Source: a virus (lineage: Duplodnaviria > Heunggongvirae > Uroviricota > Caudoviricetes). Taken from it: DNA of 55,074 nt. A program made the position numbers and the translations under genes. Under the pieces are notes generated by a model that did no database searches, had not been told where the DNA came from, and saw nothing but the letters and a program-made list of their open reading frames with translations. Where the stretch lies: IMG/VR virus record IMGVR_UViG_2880361019_000008. One strand, 5' to 3'. Of the stretch, positions 8,214-8,954 are shown in pieces (position 1 is the first letter of the stretch; every line of letters starts with the position of its first letter).

Positions 8214-8954
8214 ATGAAAAACATTTCGACAGGAGGGATTCTTGAACGGGTGCGCCGTCTGGCACCACCGCACGTGGCAGCACCGTTCCGGACGACCGAC
8301 GAATGGCGGGAATGACAACTGGCTGAGGGCCGTAAGCGCAGCGAGGAAATTAACCGCCTGAATCATCAGGCGCGGGTTGAAAAAATCCTGAACCGTGCGG
8401 GCATCCAGCCGCTTCACAGGAAGTGCTCATTCGGGAACTACCGGGTGCAGAACGACGGTCAGCGCCATGCTCTGAGCCAGGCGAAATCCATTGCCGATGA
8501 ATTGATGACCGGATGTACAAACTTCGTGTTCAGCGGTAAACCTGGTACCGGTAAAAATCACCTGGCAGCAGCGATTGGCAATCGGCTGATGGCGAAGGGG
8601 AGAAGCGTGATTATCGTCACCGTGTCCGATGTCATGAGCGTGTTGCATGACGGCTACGACAACGGCCAGTCCGGGGAAAAATTTTTACAGGAGCTTTGTG
8701 GAGTTGACCTTCTGGTCCTTGATGAAATTGGCATGCAGCGGGATACGCGCAACGAGCAGGTCACGCTGAACCAGATAGTCGACCGCAGAACGGCTTCGAT
8801 GCGTAGTGTCGGAATGCTGACGAACCTGAATCACGCAGCGATGAGCACACTCCTCGGAGATCGGGTGATGGACCGTATGACCATGAATGGTGGTCGTTGG
8901 GTGAATTTTAACTGGGAGAGCTGGCGGTCAAACGTTGGACGTCAGGGTATGTGA
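8214..8954 (+). pseudogene. DnaC-like helicase loader interrupted by an in-frame TGA (opal) codon at 8313-8315
   Basis: ATG 8214 in frame with the 8445..8954 ORF; Walker A GKPGTGKNHL and Walker B LLVLDEIG downstream; TGA aligns with a Trp codon position in remembered DnaC. Confidence 0.65.

Follow-up and report, generated by a model that had tools for sequence, protein, structure and literature searches.

The gene under study lies in the early region of a lambdoid prophage, carried on a window of 55,074 nucleotides (IMG/VR virus record IMGVR_UViG_2880361019_000008), by which we mean the whole stretch of DNA that was analysed. The prophage adjoins potC and comprises an integrase gene (1-1119), the early region, a Q antiterminator (13286-13681), genes for lysis, head and tail, and type III effector-like genes at its right end. 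A single tRNA gene, for tRNA-Leu with the anticodon CAG (81 nt, 15621-15701), is predicted by ARAGORN 3' of the Q antiterminator region. On the plus strand, at 8214-8954, is a gene of 246 codons for a DnaC-like helicase loader of the PRK12377/YdaV type, interrupted and very probably inactivated by one nonsense codon. From the ATG at 8214 the frame passes through 33 sense codons to a TGA at 8313-8315, beyond which it is open to a second TGA at 8952-8954. A first-pass annotation had placed this ATG in frame with an ORF containing Walker motifs, with TGA as codon 34 and C as the next base (8316), and both the sequence and its translation bear this out. Two open frames are left on the plus strand. 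The first is a remnant of 33 codons (8214-8315), which retains the native start and, judged by anti-Shine-Dalgarno (anti-SD) duplex energy, a strong Shine-Dalgarno sequence. The second is an AAA+ remainder of 169 codons (8445-8954), which begins at a GTG without a Shine-Dalgarno sequence, this being the first ATG, GTG or TTG after the stop in the loader frame, and which gene callers report as a protein. The Walker A (GKPGTGKNH) and Walker B (DLLVLDEIG) motifs are both in the loader frame past codon 34. Chance overlap of unrelated ORFs was ruled out, because the 99 nt 5' of the stop and the 129 nt from the stop to codon 77 match the intact allele of Escherichia coli 1604D011 at every position except one G-to-A change.

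The identity of the gene was established with Trp restored at codon 34. In this form the protein scores 499 bits on the NCBIfam model NF009043 (PRK12377, 'ATP-binding protein'; cutoff 389), matching positions 1-245 of 248, and 313 bits on the DnaC equivalog NF005931, for which the cutoff is 357; the window thus carries a phage paralogue of DnaC, distinct from the host gene. Its Pfam matches (IstB_IS21, Bac_DnaA and AAA) fall on the AAA+ core. When an intact homologue was aligned to E. coli DnaC (PDB 6QEL), residues 3-241 were covered with an E-value of 1e-77, and the interrupted codon was found to correspond to DnaC Trp32. Hence the earlier designation of the gene as a dnaC-like loader, and the placing of its stop at a Trp-aligned codon, were both correct. 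E. coli DnaC (PDB 6QEL/6QEM) is of equal length and has the same Walker motifs, with two N-terminal helices ahead of an AAA+ domain; it differs in that the window copy belongs to a prophage, stands behind an O-like initiator, is interrupted and scores under the DnaC equivalog cutoff. DnaC residues 8-11 and 31-44 contact DnaB (PMC4705694). By homology to 6QEL, proteins of the loader family would be expected to load DnaB onto single-stranded DNA in an ATP-dependent manner.

IstB, the helper ATPase of IS21 elements, belongs with the loader to the IstB_IS21/DnaC family of AAA+ folds, although the resemblance is confined to the AAA+ core (69.7 bits for the intact homologue compared to 227.5 bits for a genuine IstB) and no transposase adjoins the loader. 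A genuine IstB gene, and so an AAA+ paralogue of the loader, is present elsewhere in the same window (43876-44625). Rac prophage YdaV is related more distantly, the DNA similarity to ydaV being approximately 76%. The loader's own subfamily, PRK12377 (NF009043), is made up of DnaC-like proteins from lambdoid prophages of E. coli, in which the gene order is alike: O-like gene, loader, DUF1627 and DUF977. The window copy differs from these by its stop at codon 34 and in being a mosaic allele, with an N-terminus of the 1604D011/O104:H4 type and a C-terminus of the O157 type.

The gene occupies the place that its family normally occupies, directly 3' of the O-like initiator in the lambdoid early-right operon, as it is in annotated relatives. 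Here it is followed by DUF1627, DUF977 and DUF551 genes, an order that recurs in many E. coli lambdoid prophages, and at this place in such prophages the PGAP pipeline calls an intact 741-nt 'ATP-binding protein'. Among the copies on viral contigs that could be read whole, 103 of 110 are intact, with 246 or 248 aa, and in this set conservation is 0.927 for the N-terminal 77 residues as against 0.939 for the rest of the protein. The idea that homologues might naturally start near 8445, which would have made the upstream frame irrelevant, thus fails: they are 246-248 aa long with a conserved N-terminus, and the PRK12377 match covers the protein almost from end to end. The uninterrupted frame of 246-248 codons that characterizes PRK12377 (NF009043) is broken in the window by the TGA at codon 34, and the locus is consequently a pseudogene of that family.

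Upstream of the loader, the gene for the O-like replication initiator (360 aa, 7125-8207, plus strand) has its stop 6 nt before the loader ATG; its homologues are called 'DNA-binding protein' by PGAP. The last ~26-29 residues of the initiator (8120-8204, …SEPDTEIPPGFRG) resemble the C-terminal tail of DnaT, with matches to PDB 6AEP and 2RU8 (primosomal protein 1) at E-values of 0.0016-0.0036 and a shared motif, SEPDxxIPPGFRG. The DnaT model NF002770 is matched at E = 0.0014, below its cutoff, and no Pfam match was found in it outside the DnaT-like tail. With a DnaT-like tail on the initiator and a DnaC-like loader behind it, the prophage pair parallels the host dnaT-dnaC pair. Within the O-like gene, GTCACG repeats form two clusters across 7253-7559, one of three copies (7253-7289) and one of five copies spaced 10-11 bp apart (7513-7559); 8 of the 26 plus-strand copies in the 55 kb window fall inside this span of 307 bp. 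These clusters are probable origin iterons. Just 3' of them, at 7563-7598, GATAAAGATACA is repeated three times in tandem and encodes a (DKDT) repeat.

Codon 34 was ancestrally a Trp codon. A nucleotide alignment with three intact homologues has TGG at this position in all three, as does every homologue read, so that comparison with homologous prophage alleles, which the first-pass annotation had proposed as a check, upholds its suggestion of a TGG-to-TGA origin. The TGG form of a degenerate 26-mer around the codon occurs on at least 120 viral contigs. The TGA form of the same 26-mer, sought with exact and degenerate patterns, gave no matches in the species-representative genome contigs, the viral contigs or the metagenome contigs, searches in which the TGG control pattern worked. 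Similarly, the stretch of 105 nt around codon 34 was matched perfectly in none of 5,426 complete E. coli genomes and at one mismatch in 51.

The bacterium that carries the TGA allele is Escherichia albertii. Over 18,954 compared nt, the window is identical to the chromosome CP034212.1, which belongs to E. albertii 2010C-3449 (isolated from a human in 2010; ST5390; table in PMC10673567), and the potCD genes adjoining the prophage are approximately 94% identical to those of E. coli. Ten independent assemblies were gathered by the exact sequence of the neighbouring O-like protein, among them drafts built from short reads and one Logan assembly from a different run. All ten have TGA at codon 34 and none has any other difference across the loader gene; their flanks differ from the window by 0-3 SNPs over 3-7 kb, except on two contigs. 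The TGA allele is therefore private to, and fixed in, a single nearly clonal lineage. Its presence in all ten assemblies that have this O-like protein shows that it is at least tolerated, which fits a neutral and a useful allele alike. The two exceptional draft contigs (L131 and L136) carry the TGA allele and then change to another prophage type from the equivalent of position 8963, 9 nt past the loader stop, where the switched sequence encodes a DUF977 protein of 130 aa, a DUF4406 protein and Ead. The switch may reflect true recombination, or else the joining of short reads across a repeat during assembly.

The allele is young. Across codons 1-77 the G-to-A change at codon 34 is the sole difference from the intact 1604D011 allele, and codons 78-246 have no nucleotide difference from an intact O157:H7 allele and no variation among the ten carriers. 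One E. coli assembly contains the exact Trp34 version of the loader protein. With nothing but the nonsense change separating the gene from working copies, the lesion must be recent; for the same reason, the allele is too young for any relaxed selection to have left changes 3' of the stop. A second prophage in this genome is an unlikely donor, by gene conversion, of the mosaic: the two loci are just ~90.6% identical over 8145-10150.

The loader is not the only damaged gene of the prophage. A DUF968 gene (11871-12918, plus strand) is the second broken early gene, with a frameshift near 12300: in a tblastn comparison, residues 1-143 of an intact homologue of 349 aa match frame 3 (11871-12299), and residues 144-349 match frame 1 (12301-12918). 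Among the late genes, tail-tip gene J is disrupted by insertion sequences. Its 5' part (37130-39628, plus strand; FNIII-A_GpJ, Phage-tail_3, Ig_J and Ig_J_second domains) stops at the boundary of an IS21-family element (39861-44625, plus strand), which consists of istA in two segments (39861-40769 and 43193-43864) and istB (43876-44625). Inside istA is an IS66-family element in its turn (40798-43133; TnpB_IS66 and DDE_Tnp_IS66), and the Pfam domains across the combined region are rve, Mu-transpos_C_2, IstB_IS21, HTH_Tnp_1, TnpB_IS66 and DDE_Tnp_IS66. The 3' remainder of J (44676-45437, plus strand) has Phage_Tail_Tip and the first 49 of the 135 positions of the J C-terminal receptor-binding domain, and to judge from this partial match it may have been truncated a second time. 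Because J is disrupted, the prophage is predicted to be unable to form infectious particles. At the right end are two intact ORFs for type III effector-like cargo: a SopA/NleL-like HECT-type E3 ligase with pentapeptide repeats (782 aa, 48183-50531) and a DUF4765 protein (1,133 aa, 51124-54525).

The same loader is broken in other genomes, by other lesions. The most widespread is a frameshift from G5 to G6 at codons 19-20 of an O157-type loader allele, present at 100% identity in 109 of the 5,426 complete E. coli genomes; it was read at L124 (9769-10510), L126 (9769-10510), L127, L128 and L140 (2570-3311; NC_013361.1), and L126 lies in a second prophage on the E. albertii genome to which the window belongs. 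One of the 109 genomes is that of E. coli O26:H11 11368, whose copy, ECO26_RS13845, PGAP describes as 'frameshifted'. This gene belongs to the same family, has the same 3' 510 nt, is inactivated in its N-terminal part and leaves an identical ORF of 169 aa; it differs from the window copy in that its lesion is the G5-to-G6 insertion and not a nonsense mutation, its N-terminal allele is another, and it is widespread and not limited to one E. albertii clone. A second type is a change of Gln65 to TAG (CAG to TAG, C193T), again in an O157-type allele, which was reached through an exact DUF1627 neighbour at L147, L148, L149 and L151 (2235-2975); the complete chromosomes CP038389.1 and CP038383.1 are among its carriers. 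On viral contig L006 the ORF ends after 64 residues, which is probably the same Gln65 mutation. In the viral-contig set, 7 of the 110 loader copies are broken, at codons ~20, 64, 98, 104 and 170. The 169-aa product figures in the gene calls of at least 407 contigs (514 index blocks), and among the names given to it are 'hypothetical protein' and 'chromosome replication, initiation and chain elongation protein'. As each contig read has an upstream lesion, of one kind or another, the 169-aa calls are annotation artefacts of broken loader genes.

An excess of N-terminal lesions was considered as a sign of selection and set aside. Three of the six independent lesion types (G6, Trp34 and Gln65) lie in the first 31% of the gene, an unremarkable share, and the count is subject to ascertainment bias, the apparent cluster before codon 78 arising largely from a search by the exact 169-aa product. 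Knock-outs that recur in this way are to be expected where the loss of a replication function by prophages is neutral or mildly favoured.

We observed directly the lesion and its ancestral codon, the restriction of the TGA allele to one clone, the further damage to the prophage and the independent knock-outs elsewhere, and we have high confidence that the locus is a recent loss-of-function nonsense pseudogene of a prophage DnaC-like helicase loader. It has the marks of one: a sense codon in close relatives from which the stop is a single mutational step away, and other inactivating lesions in the same element. In intact phages, by homology to DnaC, the N-terminal helices of the loader would bind the host DnaB, and loading of DnaB at the phage origin would fall to the AAA+ domain. 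A single G-to-A transition converted the Trp34 codon from TGG to TGA, so that ribosomes from the strong native start would end after 33 residues and the remaining 213 codons would be essentially untranslated, presumably leaving the prophage without a loader of its own. The mutation is fixed in one clone, and too recent for further changes to have followed. Such a history would suit a prophage undergoing domestication, in which replication and virion genes appear to decay and the type III effector cargo at the right end is kept as intact ORFs. Of the options that the first-pass annotation had listed, it is the recent pseudogene that prevails, as a clonal allele with a single lesion, in a prophage with other broken genes and from a family that is broken repeatedly elsewhere.

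The alternative that best survives is that leakage through the stop matters, with near-cognate tRNA-Trp decoding UGA34 and a small amount of loader being sufficient, or being selected to throttle prophage replication. We consider this unlikely. Of the three stop codons, UGA leaks most in E. coli, and Poole, Brown and Tate reportedly found in 1995 that UGA-C is the weakest stop context. The ORF 3' of the stop is perfectly intact, and the native ATG at 8214 has an anti-SD duplex energy of -10.7 kcal/mol, which is in the top 0.7% of positions. Read-through of TGA in E. coli reporters inserts mostly Trp, and so any read-through product would be the wild-type loader; unprogrammed rates of 2-6% have been recorded in K-12 reporters under normal growth, and higher rates under stress (PMC11126739). 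These high rates, however, are due to K-12, whose RF2 variant is poor at UGA termination, and read-through products were undetectable with the RF2 of E. coli B (PMC5373646). The argument from the following C, which the first-pass annotation had advanced, is weaker than it was made to appear: in a library of E. coli reporters a G at +4 raises read-through and a T lowers it, and C is not singled out (PMC11126739). Furthermore, the stop is unconserved, since a single clone has it and thousands of related alleles lack it, and the disruption of J precludes infectious particles in any event. A low level of incidental Trp insertion, giving some full-length loader, is likely on general grounds, but past this generic leakiness of UGA the read-through option gains no support, and nothing indicates that read-through at codon 34 is programmed or selected.

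It is less likely still that the 169-aa AAA+ protein is made from GTG 8445 and serves a separate function, such as that of a dominant-negative or decoy loader. This possibility draws on the intact state of the 169-codon ORF, on the large number of contigs on which it has been called, and on the three independent lesions (G6, Trp34 and Gln65) that all lie 5' of codon 78 and leave the same ORF. The start codon argues against it. The anti-SD duplex energy of GTG 8445 is -4.3 kcal/mol, at the 22.7% point of the background distribution, in contrast to -6.3 to -10.7 kcal/mol for nine real gene starts nearby; internal initiation was considered at GTG 8445, ATG 8505, CTG 8319 and ATT 8349, and at none of these does the Shine-Dalgarno score rise above background. 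A product from GTG 8445 would also be without the DnaB-binding region, that is, the equivalent of DnaC residues 1-64. With neither a ribosome-binding signal nor this N-terminal region, the truncated product that the first-pass annotation had envisaged finds little favour. The clustering of lesions is largely a matter of ascertainment, codons 98, 104 and 170 being hit in the less biased viral-contig set, and the youth of the lesions explains the identity of the 3' part to intact alleles. A related proposal is that the repeated N-terminal knock-outs of the loader have been selected, either because a trickle of UGA read-through keeps the effector prophage quiescent or because the 169-aa fragment influences the loading of DnaB or works against phages that enter the cell; we think this equally improbable.

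Two further alternatives can be dealt with briefly. A sequencing or assembly error, with G as the true base and TGG as the true codon, might be suspected wherever a single base separates a gene from its relatives; it is hardly credible here, and is effectively refuted, because the same base is found in ten of ten independent assemblies, including the short-read drafts and the Logan assembly. Programmed recoding of the UGA, by selenocysteine or a dedicated suppressor, has a negligible probability, having nothing in its favour beyond the in-frame UGA itself and against it an ancestral Trp codon in all homologues and a lack of all three marks of such recoding, for the stop is not conserved, folding of the 106 nt around it gave z = -1.17 (25 of 200 shuffles folding at least as well) with no SECIS or other stimulatory element, and ARAGORN found no suppressor tRNA or UCA anticodon in the window, where the only tRNA is Leu(CAG).

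The locus is therefore an ordinary prophage pseudogene created by a stop codon, and it does not signal recoding. Damage of this sort, one nonsense mutation in a replication gene, is to be expected in a resident prophage that is losing its mobility and keeping its cargo, and it has little bearing on wider biology. Taken with the disrupted J, the loader lesion predicts an effector prophage that would neither replicate with a loader of its own nor produce infectious particles, and the TGA34 allele provides a clean marker of the clone that carries it.
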